From: an uncultured Alphaproteobacteria bacterium
GTDB lineage: Bacteria > Pseudomonadota > Alphaproteobacteria > Rickettsiales > UBA1997
NCBI GenBank assembly: GCA_903879805.1
Contig: CAIRMX010000140.1
Location: 1-47,736, forward strand
DNA: 47,736 nucleotides
Reading direction: 5' to 3'
Shown: piece after piece, positions 1 to 33,651 of the stretch
Layout: each line of letters begins with the position of its first letter
Position numbering within the stretch: position 1 is the first letter of the stretch
Translations under genes and position numbers: made by a program
Notes under the pieces: generated by a model
What the model was told of the DNA's origin: nothing
What the model saw: the letters and a program-made list of their open reading frames with translations, nothing else
Databases searched by the model: none

Positions 1-2404
1 AAAAGCTGCTGCCGAGTGGAATGGTTTCATCAAGATTGGCGCCAAGTCTGGCTAGGGGCGCGACGAGAGTTGCAAAATTATTGTCGAAAGCAATTTGTAA
101 CAATCCTTGAGTTGCCGCAGGATTTGGGCCCATTTCTGCAAAAGCCTCCACAGCCTTTTTTTTATTTTGCGCAACTGCGTAATATAGCGGCGAGAAACCT
201 TCGCCACTGTTTGAGTAAAAATCTGCAAATGTCACTCCGGCTTCTCTCAAAGCTCTGATGGCATCATCTTGTCCGTGATAAGCGGCGAAATGCGCTGGCG
301 TAAAATCTTCTTCAATTTTTGCGGTCAGAAGTTCGGGCTTTAATGCGCCAAGAAATTTCAGTGTTTTGAGGCTGCCATGACTACATGTTTCGCACATTAG
401 ATGTGCATTTGTTGGGTTAGTAAGAATGTCAGGGCTGTGACTTAGCAGCAGTTTAACAATTTCAACATTGTCCTTTGTGGCGGCAACAATGAGCGGCGTA
501 TTTCCATCGCCATCAATTTGGACGCAGAGCTCGGTGACTAAATCTTGAGCTGTAATTTGGCTTTTGATCTTTTGCAAAAGCAGTTCCATCAACTCGCAAT
601 TATTGTGCAGGGACGCTGAATGGAGCGCGTTGCTGCTGAGAAAAATCTCCGCAGTGGTGAAAAAATTATCCAATAGCATCACGCAAGCGTCAGCGTTGTT
701 GTGACTAGCTGCAGCTTCTAGACAATGACGCTGAAAACCTGTTGGCAATTCTGCGCGATGCTCTGGATCTTGCACTATTTTAGCATGCAGGCTGGCGAAA
801 ATTTCTGTGTAATCGGGGCGCAACATCAATTGCTCGCAAGCCAAGTAATAAGCAGCGTCCTGAGGATGCAAACTTTGCAGACTTGATTCTAATTCACTGA
901 CCAAATCAAAGTCGCTTGCCGAGCTTTTTATTTTGCGGGTTATGAACTCAATTGGAGCATTTCCTAGAAGTAGAGTTCCAATTGATGCGCTATGAAGATC
1001 TACTTGCTGAAAATTCGGATTAGCTTTGTGGATGTTGTAAAGGTTGATGATGCGCTCTACCTTTTCCGCCTGATGGGGCAAAAATTTATTGATTTGTATT
1101 CGCGCCAGATCTCTGAGATAGCTTACGTCTTCATGGTATTGTGGGCGAACTTCTTGAATGCCTTTCATGATTTCAAGAAATGTAATCGGAGCATTTCCGG
1201 CAAGATCTTCGCCCATTAACCACAAAGCCTCAAATCCGGCGAGCAACTCTTCGTCACTGCTGGGATTGTGTTTTAAATACTCTGCTGGTTCGAGTAATCC
1301 TAAAGTGCTGCCATAGATTTCTGATTTAAATAAGGCGCTTGCATCACCCCCAACTATTTGAGCAAAGGAGGTGGGTTTTCTGGGAGGGGTTTTTGGCTGA
1401 TCGAAAAATTCATCTAAAAAATCCAATGCTAAAATATTTTCTGCTGAGGCGCTTAAAGCAGATCTGCTGAGCCTCATGCTAAAATCTTTCCGAACTACAA
1501 CCTGTTTTTCATTGTAAATTTTGGCATGTTTTAACTTTGAAATCAGGGCTTCATTTAAAGTTTTATCATATTGAAAATTTACCGGATCGAAAGTGGGAAA
1601 CATCTCTCTCAAATCTGAAACGATCTCTTCAACTTTAGCTCTGCGCTGCCTGACTTCGTCAATAATTTCGGTGATTAACCGATCTTTAACTTTTCTCGAA
1701 TAAGAGGTGTGAATTTTGTGAGCTAAAAAAAGCGGTATTTGTGATTGTGGATGAAAAACTCTTTCTGCTTTAAGCCCCAAACTATATTCCAAATAGCTCG
1801 GAATATGAACTTCATTGCTGGAGAAAACGTGATCTTTTAAATCATCTACCGCATTAGCCATCACAACGTCATGCGCGCGTAATAATGGTTTGTATTTTTC
1901 ATCGGTGATTAAGGCTTGATGCAGCTTTTCGATTCTTTCTTCAGTGCCATCCAAGCAGTTTAAAAATTCACCTTCGGGTGGAAATGATTGTAAGAAAATC
2001 TCCCATTGATCTTCTGGCTTCAAGCTGAGCTGACAAAGATAATCGCAAAATTTATACATAATTTTTGCGCAGTGAGCGCTGCGCTCTGTAAGAAATCCGG
2101 CGATGTAGATTTCAAATTCTGAGCCGCTTTTTAGCGAATCTTTTTCTAAACCACGCTTAGCAAAATATTCGTAAGCAACCCGCATGGTTTCGCGCAATTG
2201 CGTTTTTGGATCAGTGGCGGCAAGCCATGAATCTCTTATTTCAACAAGCTCTGTATCTAAATCATCACTGCTTCGAACTGATTTTTGCTCGTCAAAAATT
2301 TCGCTCAGAATAACCCTAATTTTTAGGTCGCTTAAACTATTTATTTTATCCCTAATTTCCTGTTCGAAAATTGCTGGATCTTGAGTGAGAAAGTTGGGAA
2401 ACAT
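1..2404 (-). CDS. ankyrin-repeat protein, 3' end runs off the window (at least 801 codons)
   Basis: The minus-strand frame is open from ATG (2404-2402) to position 2 with no stop, which is why it is missing from the supplied ORF track. My hand translation begins MFPNFLTQDPAIFEQEIRDK. The last ~230 aa carry ankyrin-type repeats (GNTPLIVAATKDNVEIVKLLLSH, FTPAHFAAYHGQDDAIRALREAG, FSPLYYAVAQNKKKAVEAFAEMG, ...LARLGANLDE). Confidence 0.75.
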   Translation of the reverse strand, partial: MFPNFLTQDPAIFEQEIRDKINSLSDLKIRVILSEIFDEQKSVRSSDDLDTELVEIRDSWLAATDPKTQLRETMRVAYEYFAKRGLEKDSLKSGSEFEIYIAGFLTERSAHCAKIMYKFCDYLCQLSLKPEDQWEIFLQSFPPEGEFLNCLDGTEERIEKLHQALITDEKYKPLLRAHDVVMANAVDDLKDHVFSSNEVHIPSYLEYSLGLKAERVFHPQSQIPLFLAHKIHTSYSRKVKDRLITEIIDEVRQRRAKVEEIVSDLREMFPTFDPVNFQYDKTLNEALISKLKHAKIYNEKQVVVRKDFSMRLSRSALSASAENILALDFLDEFFDQPKTPPRKPTSFAQIVGGDASALFKSEIYGSTLGLLEPAEYLKHNPSSDEELLAGFEALWLMGEDLAGNAPITFLEIMKGIQEVRPQYHEDVSYLRDLARIQINKFLPHQAEKVERIINLYNIHKANPNFQQVDLHSASIGTLLLGNAPIEFITRKIKSSASDFDLVSELESSLQSLHPQDAAYYLACEQLMLRPDYTEIFASLHAKIVQDPEHRAELPTGFQRHCLEAAASHNNADACVMLLDNFFTTAEIFLSSNALHSASLHNNCELMELLLQKIKSQITAQDLVTELCVQIDGDGNTPLIVAATKDNVEIVKLLLSHSPDILTNPTNAHLMCETCSHGSLKTLKFLGALKPELLTAKIEEDFTPAHFAAYHGQDDAIRALREAGVTFADFYSNSGEGFSPLYYAVAQNKKKAVEAFAEMGPNPAATQGLLQIAFDNNFATLVAPLARLGANLDETIPLGSSF

Positions 2405-2546
2405 TTATTTGTAAGGAGTCAAAGATAGGTGATTAAAAAATGACTTTCTAGAATTGCGGTTTTTAATTCAGAAATTTCATCCCCTCCAAAATGCTGATCC
2501 GCTCAAAATTGACTGATTTTGAGATTGATCTTTTTAAGTTCAAAAA

Positions 2547-5387: not shown

Positions 5388-5546
5388 TTTTGCGAGTAGG
5401 TTTTTGCTCAGATTTAAAAGGATTGGTTAAGCGCAATATTTGAAATTAGTTCAACCTTAAGGCGAATTTAGCCTTGTTAATTAAAGTTTATTTAGAAAAG
5501 AAGCTTGAAAGTTACCTAAATTTTTGAATTAAATTTTTCACAAATC

Positions 5547-7826
5547 ATGAAAACAAGATTGGAAAGCCTGAAAAAAAGCAACGCCTCTATCTCTGAAATA
5601 ACAGAAGATCTCGCAAAAGTAATTGGCGAAAGAGTTAAAATTTTTTCACAAGACGCCAGATCTTTGCCAGCAGAAGCCTTATTGGAGATTAGACAAATTA
5701 ACGATTTTATTAGAAAATCCCCAGAAATTATTGCCCACGAAAATAGCGCATTAAATGCTACGGAAACATTGCTTCACAAGCTTTTTGCTGGAGTGCCCAA
5801 TGATTACACTATTCAAATTATTCACCATTTAATCAGCCACTACGAAACCTTTGAACACAGACCAGATCTGTTGGAAATTATGATTAGTGACAACACGATT
5901 TCCTCAAATCCTGACATGTCGGAAACATTTGATCTTCTTGCGCAGAAAAACTTGCCTAGACCAACAGATAAAGAAATAGCAGCTTTGTTGAGAAGCTCGC
6001 GATCTAGCAGCGGCTTTAATGCCACAAAATTGGCTTTTAGTTTTTTAAATTACCGCCAAGATCATTCTTTGCTGCAAAAAATTAACAGCGCTGCATCAAC
6101 AAGAGAGAACACACGAGAAAAGTTGAATCTTAAAGCTCTTTTAGAGCGAAGAATTTTTGAAGGTGGCTTAGAGCATTTTCACAAATGCGTTGGCGATTTA
6201 GTTTTGATTAATGACGACTCCCTACTTCAAAAAGCTCTGAGTAATAAAAAAAGTCAAAAATTATTAACCGAATCAACCGATCACAGCTTAGCACTTAATT
6301 TAGCCGCTGAACACAAATTTGCCGAAACTTTCAGAATTTTAATTAATGCCGGCTTTGACCCTCTTAAACATCCAGCAAGTCTAACAAACTGCTTTGCCGA
6401 GGCTTGCAAAACCCAAGGAAGCGGTACTTTGGAACTCTACTTAGAATCAATTAGAGAAAAATTTGGTGACGAAGCGGTGACGGAAATTCTTCGTGAAGGC
6501 GAAACCGCCATGTTTCATGCAATCAATGGTAGAGCCTATATTAGCACCATTAATTTTTTGCTGGATAATGGCGCTTTAGTAGAAACAAAACTGTCTGAAA
6601 ATTTACAAACGGCTGCCAATCGTGGTCAAGCCAGAGCTTTTGAACTTTTATTAGAAAGAGGATCTTTAGAAGATGGGCAACTAGAAGATGTTTTTAACGA
6701 AGTAAAAACTAACGGCGACTACGTCATTGCAAGCATATTTGTGGAGTATTTAAAAAGCGCGGGGGGTCAAGATGCAAAATCTCAAGAATTAAAATCTGCC
6801 CTTAGTGAAAAGAAAGAGCGGCTAACTCACCAAGATCTATTTCGAATCTGTCAACTTAGTGGCGAAAAGACTCTGCAATCTTACCTAGATGCCCGCCCAG
6901 ATTACAATCTACAAGAGCATATAAATGATTTTGACGGCGAAGGAAAAACTGCTCTTTACTACGCAATTAACGACAATGCCTACAATGGGTTAGTTCAGTT
7001 TCTGCTAGATCGCGGCGCCAATCCCAATCAAATTGCCGCTGAGTCTCATGGCTCCACTCATTTAGATGCCGCCACTCTCGCAATTAGAAATTGCGAACCC
7101 ACAACATTAAGTCTTTTACTGAATTCTCGAAAGCTAAATTCAAACTCAATTCGCGGTGCCGCTGCTGAATTAATAAGGCCAGAAAATAATGAAATCGTTT
7201 TAACCGAGGCCTTTGTAAATCATGTGGATACTGGAGAAATTAGGCAACTTCCTCTGGAGGTTAAGCAAATAATGCTGCAAAGAAGTTTAGAATCTGATCG
7301 CGGACCTTGTATTTACAAAATGAGAGATTCTGCAAAAGGCACTGACCTTGAGTTCTTCATCGAAGATCTTTTTTGCAAAAAAATTGAGGAAGGAAATATC
7401 AAAGTAGTATCTGCAATGATTGAAAAACTTGAGGTCAGAAAGATGTTTTTAAGTCATGCAAGAAGAACAAAAGGTCCGACAGAAACCTCAGAACGAGATG
7501 CGCTTTTAAGTGTTTCAAGTATCAATGGTTACGGCGCATCAGAAGAAGAGACGCCGAAAACAATTTTTAAAATTCCCGCAGCAAGTGCTAAAAAATTAAG
7601 CGACGAGCAAGTTGATGTAAAATATGCTGACATGGCTTTTGAGTTGGCTAAATCTTCTAACGAAGAAGAGTCTAAAATGAGAAAAGAGATTTTTAAAAAA
7701 ATAGTTAGCGCGGGTTTTCCAACTTCAAAAAGCGAAAGAGAAATAAAAGCGCTTAAAATTGATGATGGACGCGGCAGTACTTGGTGTCCCTCAATTTGCT
7801 GCCCTTCTGTTTGCGTTGTTTCTTAA
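5547..7826 (+). CDS. ankyrin-repeat protein with C-terminal Cys-rich CaaX tail (CVVS)
   Basis: Ankyrin-type repeats (SLALNLAAEHKFAETFRILINAGFDP, ETAMFHAINGRAYISTINFLLDNGALVE, KTALYYAINDNAYNGLVQFLLDRGANPN). The protein ends ...WCPSICCPSVCVVS-stop. No signal peptide. Confidence 0.8.
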   Translation: MKTRLESLKKSNASISEITEDLAKVIGERVKIFSQDARSLPAEALLEIRQINDFIRKSPEIIAHENSALNATETLLHKLFAGVPNDYTIQIIHHLISHYETFEHRPDLLEIMISDNTISSNPDMSETFDLLAQKNLPRPTDKEIAALLRSSRSSSGFNATKLAFSFLNYRQDHSLLQKINSAASTRENTREKLNLKALLERRIFEGGLEHFHKCVGDLVLINDDSLLQKALSNKKSQKLLTESTDHSLALNLAAEHKFAETFRILINAGFDPLKHPASLTNCFAEACKTQGSGTLELYLESIREKFGDEAVTEILREGETAMFHAINGRAYISTINFLLDNGALVETKLSENLQTAANRGQARAFELLLERGSLEDGQLEDVFNEVKTNGDYVIASIFVEYLKSAGGQDAKSQELKSALSEKKERLTHQDLFRICQLSGEKTLQSYLDARPDYNLQEHINDFDGEGKTALYYAINDNAYNGLVQFLLDRGANPNQIAAESHGSTHLDAATLAIRNCEPTTLSLLLNSRKLNSNSIRGAAAELIRPENNEIVLTEAFVNHVDTGEIRQLPLEVKQIMLQRSLESDRGPCIYKMRDSAKGTDLEFFIEDLFCKKIEEGNIKVVSAMIEKLEVRKMFLSHARRTKGPTETSERDALLSVSSINGYGASEEETPKTIFKIPAASAKKLSDEQVDVKYADMAFELAKSSNEEESKMRKEIFKKIVSAGFPTSKSEREIKALKIDDGRGSTWCPSICCPSVCVVS

Positions 7827-7871
7827 AACCTGTCTAAGAACCTGTCCTAAGAAAAATCTGAAGACGAATTA

Positions 7872-8204
7872 TTAAACCAAAACCCCAACCAAACTACTCG
7901 GGCGGCTTTTTAGAATTTTGACCGAGGCAATTTTTCCAAAATATTTTTTTGCCTCTTCCTCGCTAGACACGTCAACAATAACCGACTGCAGCCACGGGCT
8001 TTTACCCCAAAGCTGAGTTCCGGGTCTCGGGGTTTTTGGGCTGTTGGCTTTGCTTTTCGGCGCTTCTTTTTCGAAAAGCACCGACATTGTCTGGTCTTCA
8101 AAACCCTGGTTAAAAATGATTTGCTTTTTGTTCATGTCTGCTAAAAGTTGGAATGAACGTGAGGTCGGCATTGCAAATGCCAACCTGCAGTGGTTACCAA
8201 CCAT
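7872..8204 (-). pseudogene. displaced duplicate of the miaB 3' end (TRAM domain); still an intact 110-codon ORF
   Basis: The last 83 codons (7872-8123) align without gaps to the miaB tail at 8833-9084, with 75/83 aa identical by eye. An 86-bp block at 7930-8015 is identical to 8891-8976. It lacks the radical-SAM body of miaB. Confidence 0.7.
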
Positions 8205-8210
8205 AAGTCG

Positions 8211-8828
8211 TTAAGGAAGAAGATCGCTTAAGGCGCCCACTAACTCATAACTGATATGCCTTATTGAAGCATAGTGAACTTTGTTATTAAAAGGTTTGGG
8301 AGTTGGATGATTTGAACTTACAACGTTCCATGCGATACTATTTTCGTAAAAAAGATTTTTGCTTTTTTGGTCTAGTTTTGAGTCGTAGTGGGCTCCACCT
8401 TCCTTATCACATAAAGTTTCAATGAGATCTTTTCTTGTGAACTTGTTACCAACAGCATCCTTAATCACAATCTGCTCCCACCATAGATTAAATTCTGCCA
8501 TATATTCATTGCCTCCGATTTGCTTCGCATCATCTAATTTGGGTTCAAACGAAGCACCTACTCCAGTTGTCAGTTTCATAATACATAAAGGACTAGAGGT
8601 GAGTAAATTTTCTTCATTCACCCTTAAGTCGGAATACATTCGAAAGATGATTTTTGATTTATAATTTGTTTGCTCCAGCAAGGATTGCGTAGTTTTGCTA
8701 TCTTTGCAGATAGTTCTGATGGCAGTTGCTATATCTACGGCAAAAGATTCCTGACCTTCATCGTAAAATTTATTGAAGTGCTTAAGTTTTTCTAACTTCT
8801 CTAAAAGGACATTGGCTGCATCTCTCAT
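8211..8828 (-). CDS. hypothetical protein (205 aa from the first ATG), orphan inserted between the two miaB tails
   Basis: Long ORF. The first ATG, at 8828, lies 4 nt after the miaB stop; the track start at 8849 is a TTG inside miaB. I recognise no motif, signal peptide or TM segment. Confidence 0.6.
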   Translation of the reverse strand: MRDAANVLLEKLEKLKHFNKFYDEGQESFAVDIATAIRTICKDSKTTQSLLEQTNYKSKIIFRMYSDLRVNEENLLTSSPLCIMKLTTGVGASFEPKLDDAKQIGGNEYMAEFNLWWEQIVIKDAVGNKFTRKDLIETLCDKEGGAHYDSKLDQKSKNLFYENSIAWNVVSSNHPTPKPFNNKVHYASIRHISYELVGALSDLLP

Positions 8829-8832
8829 AAAA

Positions 8833-10212
8833 CTATGCCAACTCTCCAACCAAGCTACTCGGTCTACTTTTTAAAATTTTGACCTGAGCGATTTTTCCAA
8901 AATATTTTTTTGCCTCTTCCTCGCTAGACACGTCAACAATAACCGACTGCAGCCACGGGCTTTTACCCCAAAGCTGCGTTCCGGGACGTGGGGTTTTTGG
9001 GCTGTTGGCTTTGCTTTTTGGAGCTTCTTTTTCGAAAAGCACGTCCATGACTTTGCCTTCAAAACCTTTGTTAAAAATAATCTGCTGCTGCGTTAAAAGT
9101 TCTTGCAAACGCGCAAGGCGCTCGGTTTTTATTTCTTCTGGCACTTGAATTTTTGCGTCTGCGGCGGGCGTTCCCGGACGCGGAGAATATTTAAAAGAGT
9201 AGCATTGCGAGAAGCCGATTTTCTTAATTAGATCAAGTGTGTCTTCAAAATCTTGATCGCTTTCACCGGGAAATCCGACAATAAAATCTGACGACAAACC
9301 AATGTCTGGCCTTGCGGCACGAATCTTTTCAATAATTTTAAAATAATCTTGGCGGGTATGTTTGCGGTTCATGCCTTTTAAAACATTGTTTGATCCCGAC
9401 TGAATCGGCAGATGCAAAAATGGCATTAATTTATCAATTGCTCCGTGGGCTGCGATCAAATCATCAGTCATGTCGCGCGGATGAGAAGTGGTGTAGCGCA
9501 CGCGTTTTACTTCGGGAATTGCCGCAATTTCGGCGACCAATTTTGCTAGGCTCGCCGACTCACCTTTTTCATCCAAACCGTGGTAAGCATTAACATTTTG
9601 CCCCAGCAAATAAATTTCGCTGACGCCCTGCTCGGCCAGCCTTTTAGCATCGGCAACAATTTTAGAAACTTCGCGCGAATATTCAGCGCCACGAGTGTAA
9701 GGCACGACGCAAAAAGTGCAGAATTTATCGCAGCCTTCTTGCACTGTCACAAAAGCGCTGGTGCCAACGCCCGCAGTGCTTTGCGGCAAGGCATCAAATT
9801 TATCGTTGGGCGTAAATTCTAAATTAATTTGTTTTTTCTTTTCGCGAATCACCTTTCCAACCAGATCTGGCAAGGTTTGGTAACTTTCAGGCCCCACAAT
9901 AATATCAACCACATTGGAACGGCGGAAAATTTCTTCACCTTCGGCTTGGGCCACGCAACCAGCAACTGCAACGATCATTTGGCTGCCATCATTTTTCATT
10001 TTATCTTTGTGCGGGCGAATTCTGCCGAGATCAGAAAATAATTTTTCCGAAGCTTTTTCGCGAATGTGACAAGTGTTGATAATTACCATGTCGGCGCCTT
10101 CGGGACTGTCGGTGGTTTCGTAACCAACTGCGGTCATTAGGTCTTGCATGCGGTCTGAATCATAAACGTTCATTTGGCAGCCGTAGGTTTTTATGTGTAA
10201 TTTTTTAGTCAT
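8833..10212 (-). CDS. miaB: tRNA-2-methylthio-N6-dimethylallyladenosine synthase MiaB
   Basis: N-terminal MTKKLHIKTYGCQMNVYDSDRM, radical-SAM CDKFCTFCVVPYTRG (CxxxCxxC) and a C-terminal TRAM domain. Confidence 0.95.
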   Translation of the reverse strand: MTKKLHIKTYGCQMNVYDSDRMQDLMTAVGYETTDSPEGADMVIINTCHIREKASEKLFSDLGRIRPHKDKMKNDGSQMIVAVAGCVAQAEGEEIFRRSNVVDIIVGPESYQTLPDLVGKVIREKKKQINLEFTPNDKFDALPQSTAGVGTSAFVTVQEGCDKFCTFCVVPYTRGAEYSREVSKIVADAKRLAEQGVSEIYLLGQNVNAYHGLDEKGESASLAKLVAEIAAIPEVKRVRYTTSHPRDMTDDLIAAHGAIDKLMPFLHLPIQSGSNNVLKGMNRKHTRQDYFKIIEKIRAARPDIGLSSDFIVGFPGESDQDFEDTLDLIKKIGFSQCYSFKYSPRPGTPAADAKIQVPEEIKTERLARLQELLTQQQIIFNKGFEGKVMDVLFEKEAPKSKANSPKTPRPGTQLWGKSPWLQSVIVDVSSEEEAKKYFGKIAQVKILKSRPSSLVGELA

Positions 10213-10219
10213 TTTTATT

Positions 10220-11017
10220 TTAATTTTTCCAACCGGTTACAGTCACGATTTCAAAAGTTGCAGCTACGCCACCTTCACTTGTTGCGTAAATTTTACGGTA
10301 ATTTTCAGAAATTTTTTGTAAAAATTCTTTAGTAAAAAACTTCCGCGAGCGTTTAGTTAAAATGTTGCCCTGCCCCATGTTTTTCAAGTCTTTTAACAGA
10401 TTCAAAGGCTCGCCATACTCAACTTCAATTTTAGCAAAATCAGAAATCGGATTTTGAAAACCGGCTTTGGCAAAAAGATTGGCAGCGGTTTTTACATCAA
10501 TTGTCGGCGGCATTCTCGGCGAAATTCCGCCGTAAATTTCATTTTCAGTTTCGTATAAAACGTGAGCCAGTTGGCTGAGATTTTCTTCACCAAAAAAGCT
10601 GGCGATGAAGACGCCGTTTGGTTTTAATAGGTTTTTGATTTGGAGTAAAAATTGCGGAATTTCGTTGATGAAGTGGAAGTTGAGATTGCTTAGAATTAGG
10701 TCAAAGGATTCGGGAGCTTGTGGCAAGCCCTCTTCATCATCACACTCCTCCCAAGTCACCCTGAGCTTGTCGAAGGGTGATTCAGGGCGCGGGCTTGAAT
10801 CATGCTTCGACAAGCTCAGGGTGACATCGTGAAGATGGTCATCTAAAGCCCCAATCTCCAAAATATTCACAAACTCACGATTCAATAACCCAACATTCTC
10901 AGCAATTCTATTTGCAACTTCGTGATGTAAAAAATTATGCTGCACGAAACCCTTGGCAGCGCGTTTGCGGTTTTGCCGCAGCAAATCTCGATCAAATAGA
11001 ACCTCTTGAGTCATCAC
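10220..11017 (-). CDS. class I SAM-dependent methyltransferase-like protein (NDUFAF5/BioC-like) carrying an in-frame palindromic insert
   Basis: N-terminus FDRDLLRQNRKRAAKGF...FLHHEVANRIAENV and SFDLILSNLNFHFINE...LKPNGVFIASF match the methyltransferase-11 / NDUFAF5-like layout. Motif I is degenerate (ILEIGALDD). Confidence 0.7.
   Translation of the reverse strand: MMTQEVLFDRDLLRQNRKRAAKGFVQHNFLHHEVANRIAENVGLLNREFVNILEIGALDDHLHDVTLSLSKHDSSPRPESPFDKLRVTWEECDDEEGLPQAPESFDLILSNLNFHFINEIPQFLLQIKNLLKPNGVFIASFFGEENLSQLAHVLYETENEIYGGISPRMPPTIDVKTAANLFAKAGFQNPISDFAKIEVEYGEPLNLLKDLKNMGQGNILTKRSRKFFTKEFLQKISENYRKIYATSEGGVAATFEIVTVTGWKN
10755..10825. repeat. palindromic RPE/MITE-like element (family C) inside a coding region
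   Basis: A perfect 21-bp inverted repeat: gtcaccctgagcttgtcgaag (10755-10775) and cttcgacaagctcagggtgac (10805-10825). It is translated in frame as VTLSLSKHDSSPRPESPFDKLRVT. Confidence 0.85.
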
Positions 11018-21697: not shown

Positions 21698-21727
21698 TGT
21701 CTGAAGGAAAACTAACCCACCCTTGAT

Positions 21728-21811
21728 GTCACCCCGTCGAATGACGGGGTCCATCTCGTCACGGTTTATGAGTTTCTTCTGAGCTTGAGGCGCCATGGAC
21801 CCCGGGGTAAC
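21728..21811. repeat. palindromic element, family A (right arm degenerate)
   Basis: gtcaccccgtcgaatgacggggtccatctcgtcac is identical to the arm consensus at 22955-22989 (complement) and at 33622-33651. The right arm is reduced to catggaccccggggtaac. Confidence 0.8.
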
Positions 21812-22903: not shown

Positions 22904-22989
22904 ACCCCCCATTGTCACCCCGTCGAATGACGGGGTCCACAGTCCAAGATATTTGATCTTTTGTGTGACGAGATGGACCCCGTCATTCG
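22904..22989. repeat. palindromic element, family A (complete copy)
   Basis: Left arm gtcaccccgtcgaatgacggggtccac (from 22904) and right arm gtgacgagatggaccccgtcattcgacggggtgac (to 22989). Each arm contains a 7-bp stem, ccccgtc-gaat-gacgggg. Confidence 0.85.
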
Positions 22990-23025
22990 ACGGGGTGACA
23001 AATTAAAAAAGACGAAAATTAGTTC

Positions 23026-33609: not shown

Positions 33610-33621
33610 TTCACACTAAGT

Positions 33622-33651
33622 GTCACCCCGTCGAATGACGGGGTCCATCTC
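33622..33651. repeat. single arm of the family-A palindromic element, between sdhB and proC
   Basis: gtcaccccgtcgaatgacggggtccatctc is identical to the arm at 21728-21757. It contains the 7-bp hairpin ccccgtc-gaat-gacgggg. Confidence 0.8.

Follow-up and report, generated by a model that had tools for sequence, protein, structure and literature searches.

A one-gene cassette between duplicated miaB ends in an uncultured alphaproteobacterium may be exchanged by homology

How does the end of a gene come to be present twice around a single accessory gene, and which of the two ends is the native one? These questions are raised by the miaB locus of an uncultured alphaproteobacterium (GenBank assembly GCA_903879805.1, contig CAIRMX010000140.1), studied here in a stretch of 47,736 nt that is referred to as the window in its entirety. 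A sequence-only reading of this stretch had described the two miaB 3′ ends as a footprint resembling that of an attachment site (att), bracketing one orphan gene. Our comparison with related genomes suggests that the locus holds a minimal integrated cassette, one that is non-autonomous and passes between miaB ends by homology-based exchange, a reading to which we give a probability of roughly 0.55. All of the compared sequences are metagenome assemblies; 100 loci were fetched, and the tblastn screen for a second miaB end covered the first 85.

The miaB gene is located on the minus strand (8833-10212) and encodes a protein of 459 aa with Pfam matches to UPF0004 (E = 2e-30) and Radical_SAM (E = 7e-29), as well as a match to TRAM that is sub-threshold (15.3 bits) yet in the expected place. 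This is the domain set of MiaB (UPF0004, radical SAM core, and TRAM), and close relatives are named MiaB by JGI and NCBI; the protein is 98% identical to relative P0270. Judging by its open reading frame (ORF) and domain matches, the gene is functional. Its last 84 codons and stop (8833-9087) are duplicated in the same orientation, also on the minus strand, at 7872-8126, and a repeat search returned the corresponding direct repeat (7877-8125 versus 8838-9086; 249 nt, 88% identity, spacing 961). A codon comparison of the two ends found the same residue at 76 of 84 positions and no indels, frameshifts, or internal stops. The alignment recovered the 83 codons plus stop, with 75 of 83 residues identical, that the sequence-only reading had counted by eye; its synonymous codon example (Ser-Arg-Pro-Ser-Ser, codons 99-103) was correct, and the coordinates of its 86-bp core were exact. 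The weaker similarity it had followed to about position 8165 was not significant, as the gapped alignment of the 45 upstream nucleotides was no better than 104 of 1000 shuffles.

Within the repeat, the 86-nt stretch at 8891-8976 is identical to that at 7930-8015, a perfect run with a probability of about 5e-6 by permutation given 34 differences in 252 nt. The Nei-Gojobori method gave 19.2 synonymous differences at 52.7 sites and 14.8 nonsynonymous differences at 199.3 sites between the two ends, that is, a synonymous rate (dS) of 0.50, a nonsynonymous rate (dN) of 0.078, and a dN/dS of 0.16. On either side of the 86-nt core dS reaches 0.76 and 1.13, with a dN/dS of about 0.15 outside it. These ratios, not close to 1, agree with the earlier proposal of two alleles that had diverged under purifying selection.

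Both occupied and empty versions of the site were found in related genomes. One occupied relative, hereafter R (L081/L082, GCA_947442475.1), is collinear with the window at ~91% DNA identity, encodes a MiaB 96% identical to that of the window, and has the same gene order of miaB, intervening gene (the cargo), and miaB fragment. Besides the window, it was the only genome among the 100 fetched loci with a second miaB end, and the tblastn screen of the first 85 detected none elsewhere. A single intact miaB is present in L092, L093-L095, L097, and L101. Loci L093-L095, whose MiaB is 97% identical and ends in GVLV, align to window positions 8125-7844 and cross their own miaB stop into the flank on the 7871 side (ATTCGTCTTCAGATT...); they are therefore empty sites, with a native-type tail followed by the fragment's own downstream flank. 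The last 20 residues of their MiaB proteins, and of relative P0271, equal the end of the window fragment (...KIASVKILKSRPSSLVGVLV). Locus L092 (MiaB 98% identical, ending in GVLN) encodes miaB, three convergent ankyrin-like genes, and msrA, with no cassette. Locus L091, which matches the window at 97.9% identity along 9.3 kb, has an uninterrupted native miaB end, also GVLN, and shares with L092 both this end and the same 56 nt past the stop. In L097 and L101, which are 89-90% relatives, msrA directly follows miaB. The cassette is thus absent from strains much closer to the window than R. The empty site that the sequence-only reading had thought worth seeking exists in L093-L095, and the occupied arrangement is not common to all relatives.

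The origin of each part of the two copies was examined in a 255-nt frame, whose position 1 corresponds to window position 9087 for miaB and to 8126 for the fragment. At positions 198-255, the fragment (7872-7929, minus strand, ending in KIASVKILKSRPSSLVGVLV plus stop) shows 3/58 differences from L093 and represents the displaced native end. The same positions of the window miaB (8833-8890, minus strand, ending in KIAQVKILKSRPSSLVGELA plus stop, with GELA as its last residues) differ from R's miaB at 3/58 sites, from the window fragment at 15/58, and from the native ends of L093 and L091 at 14-18/58 (14/58 for L093); this end resembles those of P0274 and P0278, which are 87-89% relatives. Positions 112-197, the identical tract, show 0/86 differences from L093 in both window copies; copy 1 (8891-8976, minus strand) is of the native L093 type, with 0/86 differences from L093/L094 and from copy 2 (7930-8015, minus strand), which is likewise the native allele. 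At positions 1-111, the window miaB (8977-9087, minus strand) is native-like, with 5 differences from L091, 7 from L093, and 20 from the window fragment. The corresponding part of the fragment (8016-8126, minus strand, coding for QGFEDQTMS) differs at 17-25 of the 111 nt from every native allele, shares sites 66, 69, 100, 102, and 111 with R's miaB, and has QTMS codons in common with L096, an 87% relative. When the native parts are rejoined (miaB 1-197 plus fragment 198-255), the product differs from L093 at 10 of 255 positions; the actual window copies differ from it at 21 and 28.

The end that now completes miaB (8833-8890) is, on this comparison, evidently a foreign allele, and the gene is a chimera of a native body and a foreign last 58 nt. 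The marks of a surrogate gene end were all found: a flanking direct repeat, a native 5′ part joined to an element-derived 3′ part, and empty sites in relatives that match the rejoined flanks. The comparison of alleles therefore supports a Campbell-type product, in line with the earlier suggestion that an element had supplied a surrogate miaB end and displaced the native one; the two tails do not coalesce within the lineage and match different alleles, those of L093 and R.

The two occupied genomes differ in the positions at which their copies switch between alleles. In the window fragment, foreign sequence gives way to native sequence at positions 111-117, and in the window miaB, native sequence gives way to foreign at 177-198; the corresponding ranges in R are ~9-34 for the fragment and ~45-66 for miaB. 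Sites 69, 100, 102, and 111 are crossed, such that R's miaB has the base of the window fragment and R's fragment has the base of the window miaB. Between its two switch points, each genome has native sequence in both copies, and the 86-nt identity of the window is an interval of this kind. The two copies of R differ at 20/86 positions of this tract, and its foreign version, that of R's miaB, differs from the native one at 14/86. The 86-nt identity is therefore no evidence of an att core, as both window copies contain the native L093 sequence there and the foreign allele differs at 14 sites. Of the att-like footprint described from the sequence, the duplicated gene end stands, and the 86-nt stretch as a fixed att core probably does not; the stretch would rather be a recombination or conversion tract. 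A single ancestral crossover is insufficient, since R's miaB switch needs a position of at most 66 and that of the window fragment a position of at least 111. A single fixed crossover core would fit the switch points less well, although only two occupied loci are compared and later conversion is possible. We also considered that R's fragment was a heavily decayed pseudogene and that the window core had recently been converted from it; this was dropped, as several of the apparently unique changes are allelic in L091-L093.

The cassette is younger than the genomes that carry it. Between the window and R, DNA identity is 96.8% for the cargo, 90.6% for the miaB body, and 90-94.5% for five other neighboring genes. 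The cargo has a dS of 0.086 (10 differences at 123 synonymous sites), compared with 0.23-0.49 for seven flanking genes (binomial P = 1.6e-7), and hence the common ancestor of the cassette is more recent than that of the genomes. Its dN/dS of 0.24 indicates that the cargo is maintained by purifying selection. These patterns indicate that the unit is gained and lost among related strains and has moved horizontally between lineages. The sequence-only reading had left the choice between a minimal cassette and a remnant of a larger island; the former fits better than a recent remnant, as a 0.9-kb unit is found in two host backgrounds and is younger than both.

In the reading that we prefer, ~875 bp of foreign DNA (8016-8890) would lie within the TRAM-coding miaB 3′ end in a Campbell-type arrangement. 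Its order on the minus strand would be the native miaB body, the foreign end (58 nt plus stop), the cargo gene (8211-8828, 205 aa), a spacer of 84 nt from the cargo stop to the fragment (8127-8210), the foreign miaB′ part, and the displaced native end with its flank (7844-7871), which continues from that end as in the empty sites according to the alignment of L093-L095. The miaB gene would stay intact because the foreign surrogate end completes the native body. The cargo ATG is 4 nt past the miaB stop, and no promoter or intrinsic terminator was found between the two genes on the minus strand; the cargo is most likely expressed by read-through transcription from miaB. Movement and reshaping of the unit would proceed by homologous recombination between the ~250-nt miaB-end sequences, with the RecA-type enzyme being an assumption of the model. 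This could take three routes: a circular or tandem form may integrate or excise, imported DNA may replace the unit with miaB and the displaced end and flank serving as homology arms, or conversion may occur between the two copies; the 86-nt identity would be such a tract. Repeated homology-driven exchange between miaB ends would be the simplest reading of the mosaics, and a fixed recombinase crossover fits them less well.

Several points weigh against this interpretation. An element-borne surrogate gene end is a hallmark of integrase-driven elements. Only two occupied loci are available, and later conversion could have shifted their switch points away from a fixed integrase crossover; in addition, the foreign allele of the 86-nt tract is deduced from R's miaB alone. 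In locus L085, an Xis-like gene and a gene for a tyrosine integrase directly precede a 63%-identical relative of the cargo, which is followed by hsdM, and a helper integrase could also be encoded outside the window. Protein and spacer scans of viral contigs gave no match to a free or circular form or to its junction, and a scan of metagenome contigs for further occupied sites returned only L085 again. Finally, part of the mosaic in the window miaB end could be due to switches among strains that were assembled together, although the overall arrangement recurs in R, an independent assembly in which the copies are more diverged (79-85% identical).

The best-surviving alternative is a non-autonomous site-specific element, either a cis-mobilizable element (CIME) or a miniature satellite, with attL and attR, mobilized in trans, either by a tyrosine integrase from another part of the genome or by an incoming element directed at the miaB 3′ end; the mosaic would then be due to later conversion between the repeats. 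This is possible, but we consider the odds to be against it. The surrogate-gene-end architecture is a classical integrase footprint, as in the e14 icd/icdC pair, and the loss of integration and transfer genes with retention of attL and attR is what defines a CIME. The integrase beside the cargo relative in L085 points the same way, but its match is below the Pfam cut-off (24.3 versus 27.1 bits) and the contig contains no miaB-like sequence. An island targeting the MiaB-like gene rimO has been reported; a literature search returned no report of miaB itself in this role. Against such an element stand the switch points, which are 50-150 nt apart in the two occupied genomes, the presence of a double-native tract in both, and the 20/86 differences between R's copies in the very tract that is identical in the window.

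Nor was an integrase found in the annotated parts of the window; the sequence-only reading had noted its absence between the two copies. No integrase or transposase was present among the 20 ORFs of the 20.7-47.7 kb region, and none of the Pfam tags on R's syntenic genes, which together span most of window 0.6-20.7 kb, indicated a recombinase, nor did the Pfam matches of the ankyrin gene that R lacks. There is no ORF of at least 81 aa wholly within 1-2546, and the rest of the 47.7-kb window encodes housekeeping functions. The only gene between the repeats encodes a 205-aa member of phrog_7805, and the unit thus has no integrase of its own. A hidden recombinase function of the cargo was ruled out, as there is no fold match and its relatives occur singly in prophage head or lysis modules without flanking repeats. 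A structured-RNA or tRNA target was also rejected, since no tRNA genes or Rfam matches were found in the window.

A bolder form of the homology-based reading, which we regard as doubtful, is that of a self-sufficient "gene-end swap" cassette. Here, a 961-bp unit made up of a promoterless accessory gene and a copy of the miaB TRAM end would be spread by host homologous recombination without a recombinase of its own, and would insert behind a constitutively transcribed, essential-like gene and take over its transcription, leaving the double-native tract as its signature. Insertion might occur by ends-in or gap-repair integration of a circle or tandem form, or by flank-guided replacement.

It is quite improbable that a larger island or prophage integrated once in the common ancestor and decayed to the present unit, which would now be immobile and inherited vertically, with its absences explained by deletions. 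A second miaB end in the window and R only, in the screen of the first 85 loci, with homologous cargo-fragment junctions in the two, would agree with a single origin. R's displaced miaB end is truncated ~25 nt before the stop, is followed by unrelated DNA, and has many replacement changes, as expected of a decaying remnant; this truncation and the unrelated DNA after it make R's copy look fixed in place, whereas the repeats of the window are intact. However, the cargo dS is 3-5 times below that of the flanking genes, and L091, at 97.9% identity to the window compared with ~91% for R, has the native end and 56 post-stop nucleotides as in the cassette-free L092. In addition, one ancestral crossover cannot yield both R's miaB switch (at most 66) and that of the window fragment (at least 111) without extra exchanges. 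The least credible explanation is that the miaB end was simply duplicated locally, in tandem, around an inserted gene, or that the assembly is a chimera of two strain haplotypes: an 86-nt exact repeat could confuse assemblers, and the contigs of close relatives break 56-170 bp past miaB, but the dS of 0.76-1.13 and dN/dS of ~0.15 outside the core, the match of each copy's end to a different allele from other samples, the same arrangement in the independently assembled R, and the fragment's foreign 5′ part and spacer, which are unique sequence and present in both genomes, all argue against it.

The miaB cassette can be compared with several known systems. Integron cassettes each consist of one promoterless gene in a unit of ~1 kb and owe their expression to a promoter upstream. 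The miaB unit resembles them in size, in its single promoterless gene, and in its probable dependence on an upstream promoter of the host or platform, but it recombines with a coding gene end; neither an attC-like site nor intI was found, and the one structured element of the spacer is a simple 11-bp hairpin, imperfect in R. CIMEs of streptococci are, like the miaB unit, flanked by attL/attR-like repeats of the target end and are without integration and transfer genes. They differ in being decayed integrative and conjugative elements (ICEs) or integrative and mobilizable elements that move by accretion with an incoming ICE using the same att site, whereas the miaB unit is far smaller; no parent element was found for it at miaB among the 100 fetched loci, nor was an integrase partner or a fixed core identified. 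The closest parallel in architecture is provided by e14 (and phage 21) in the icd gene of Escherichia coli, which is described with a replacement end supplied by the element, a displaced 3′ fragment (icdC), mostly synonymous differences between the icd ends, and excision by recombination of icd with the fragment (Hill et al. 1989). The likeness lies in an element placed in the 3′ end of a housekeeping gene that is kept functional with its original end displaced; e14 differs as a prophage remnant of 15 kb that encodes an integrase and has a defined att site, compared with 0.9 kb, one cargo gene, no recombinase found, variable switch points, and miaB as the target for the present unit. Minimal mobile elements of Neisseria also show differing content between conserved genes and no recombinase, and their exchange is ascribed to homologous recombination in the flanks (Saunders and Snyder 2002); for the miaB unit, such a mode of transfer has indirect support from the mosaic alleles, the variable switch points, and the low cargo dS. 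They are intergenic and duplicate no flank, unlike the miaB insert, which lies inside a coding end and brings its own copy of that end. The cassette is best read as being of a kind related to e14/icd, CIMEs, and minimal mobile elements, but integrase-less and 0.9 kb in size.

The cargo had been described as an orphan from the sequence; it proved to be a member of phrog_7805, a large family of phage and plasmid accessory proteins (E = 1.2e-29 over residues 8-202), and 60/60 sampled relatives match the same family. A profile search of 1.84 billion cluster representatives returned 2707 relatives at E<=1e-3, typically of 200-280 aa. Close relatives of the protein number only four among 5.8 billion proteins, and R's copy is 95-96% identical. 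Pfam, NCBIfam, and PADLOC gave no match for the window cargo, and none of them describes the family. PADLOC E2 and SEC-C matches were discarded as an indication of function, as they are confined to single, longer relatives. A sequence profile search of the PDB with the cargo gave nothing below E = 0.13. The AlphaFold2 model reached a predicted local distance difference test (pLDDT) score of 93 with 117 sequences (49 with 5 sequences), and Foldseek found no solved fold matching it in the PDB (best E = 3.4). The only strong match among predicted viral structures was an uncharacterized Gordonia phage protein (E = 1.2e-8). Residues R38, W116, W117, R132, G144, G145, H147, R190, and E195 are invariant in the family.

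Members of the family are encoded between Mu-F-like and scaffold genes in Acinetobacter prophages, between tail-fiber genes and RES/holin genes in a Clostridium prophage, and between the lysis cassette and the integrase gene in Arthrobacter phage BrayBeast. On small Lactococcus and Levilactobacillus (Lactobacillus) plasmids, they are beside HsdS, small integrase, and toxin-antitoxin genes. These neighborhoods suggest that the cargo is a moron or a defense-type (phage-exclusion) accessory gene. No duplicated gene ends were found around other family members in L083-L085 or in the prophage loci. In L084, a 65%-identical relative of the cargo is next to the gene for a 325-aa Y1 (IS200-like) transposase, and a 20-27-nt repeat (AGTGTCGAGAGTCGAGATT; L084 1-27, 1089-1108, and 1835-1861) brackets each of these two genes. 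The L084 repeats suggest a neighborhood of repetitive extragenic palindromes (REPs) and REP-associated tyrosine transposases, with the repeats being REP-like elements.

The spacer (minus strand) contains a hairpin with an 11-bp stem, with an RNA folding energy of -28.1 kcal/mol (z = -2.9); it is 89% identical between the window and R, where the stem has ~2 mismatches by eye. The fragment is an intact ORF on the minus strand with in-frame ATGs at 8202-8204 (110 aa) and 8135-8137 (87 aa), and R also retains a fragment ORF of 104 aa (L081 10680-10994). No ribosome-binding site was seen for the fragment ORF of the window, which could yield a stand-alone TRAM-like peptide.

The region between miaB and msrA varies in content: it is empty in L097 and L101 and holds ankyrin-like genes in L092, the cassette and an ankyrin gene in the window, and the cassette and 418 bp in R. 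Different content thus occurs between the same conserved flanking genes, as in minimal mobile elements. The ankyrin-repeat gene of the window (5547-7826, plus strand, with ankyrin Pfam matches) lies outside the cassette, and the 2.5 kb that contain it (5392-7894) are replaced by 418 unrelated bp in R. Given these differences in R, L092, L097, and L101, the miaB-msrA interval is a hotspot at which effector-like ankyrin genes vary, irrespective of the cassette. In L002 (1832-3870), miaB is followed by a 123-aa ORF, an IS1595-family transposase gene, and an ankyrin protein gene; in L003 (2544-4049), an ORF overlapping the miaB stop encodes a 501-aa protein without Pfam matches, and the contig ends 232 bp later. 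No second miaB end was seen in L002 or, up to the end of its contig, in L003.

Other repeats were noted in the window. A near-perfect palindrome of 71 nt (10755-10825; DNA folding energy -36.9 kcal/mol, z = -8.3) lies in frame within a methyltransferase ORF (10220-11017, minus strand). The methyltransferase gene is 15-16 codons longer in the window and L093 than in R, L091, and L092, and in L091 and L092 a related palindrome copy directly follows the miaB stop (L092 3141-3222). The palindrome looks like an element of the Rickettsia palindromic element or miniature inverted-repeat transposable element type that tolerates insertion into coding sequence. An exact repeat of 26-27 nt, containing a short GC-rich hairpin (CACCCCGTCGAATGACGGGGT), occurs at four intergenic sites (21727-21752, 22913-22938, 22975-23000, and 33620-33646) and at the start of L091; it resembles an interspersed repeat of the REP type. 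R has nothing that corresponds to ~1.3 kb of the window (1057-2351), and window 1-2546 may be a decayed or variable region. A 1351-aa ORF on the minus strand (42483-46538) has no Pfam match at E<=1e-5.

As read here, the miaB cassette would be a natural case of an island reduced to the smallest possible form, a single gene with a surrogate gene end; it is supported by empty sites, by another occupied genome, and by a molecular-clock argument that it moved after its hosts had diverged. It suggests that an att-like duplicated gene end alone need not imply a site-specific recombinase, and that conversion can account for a perfect core between repeats, two points that bear on tools calling islands from direct repeats. 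The comparison also marks out the miaB-msrA interval as a hotspot of variable content in this uncultured lineage of freshwater alphaproteobacteria, and it places a large family of 2707 cluster representatives among phage and plasmid accessory genes. If the bolder proposal of a self-sufficient cassette were true and general, gene-end cassettes would be an overlooked route by which defense-type genes are distributed in small, integrase-poor genomes.

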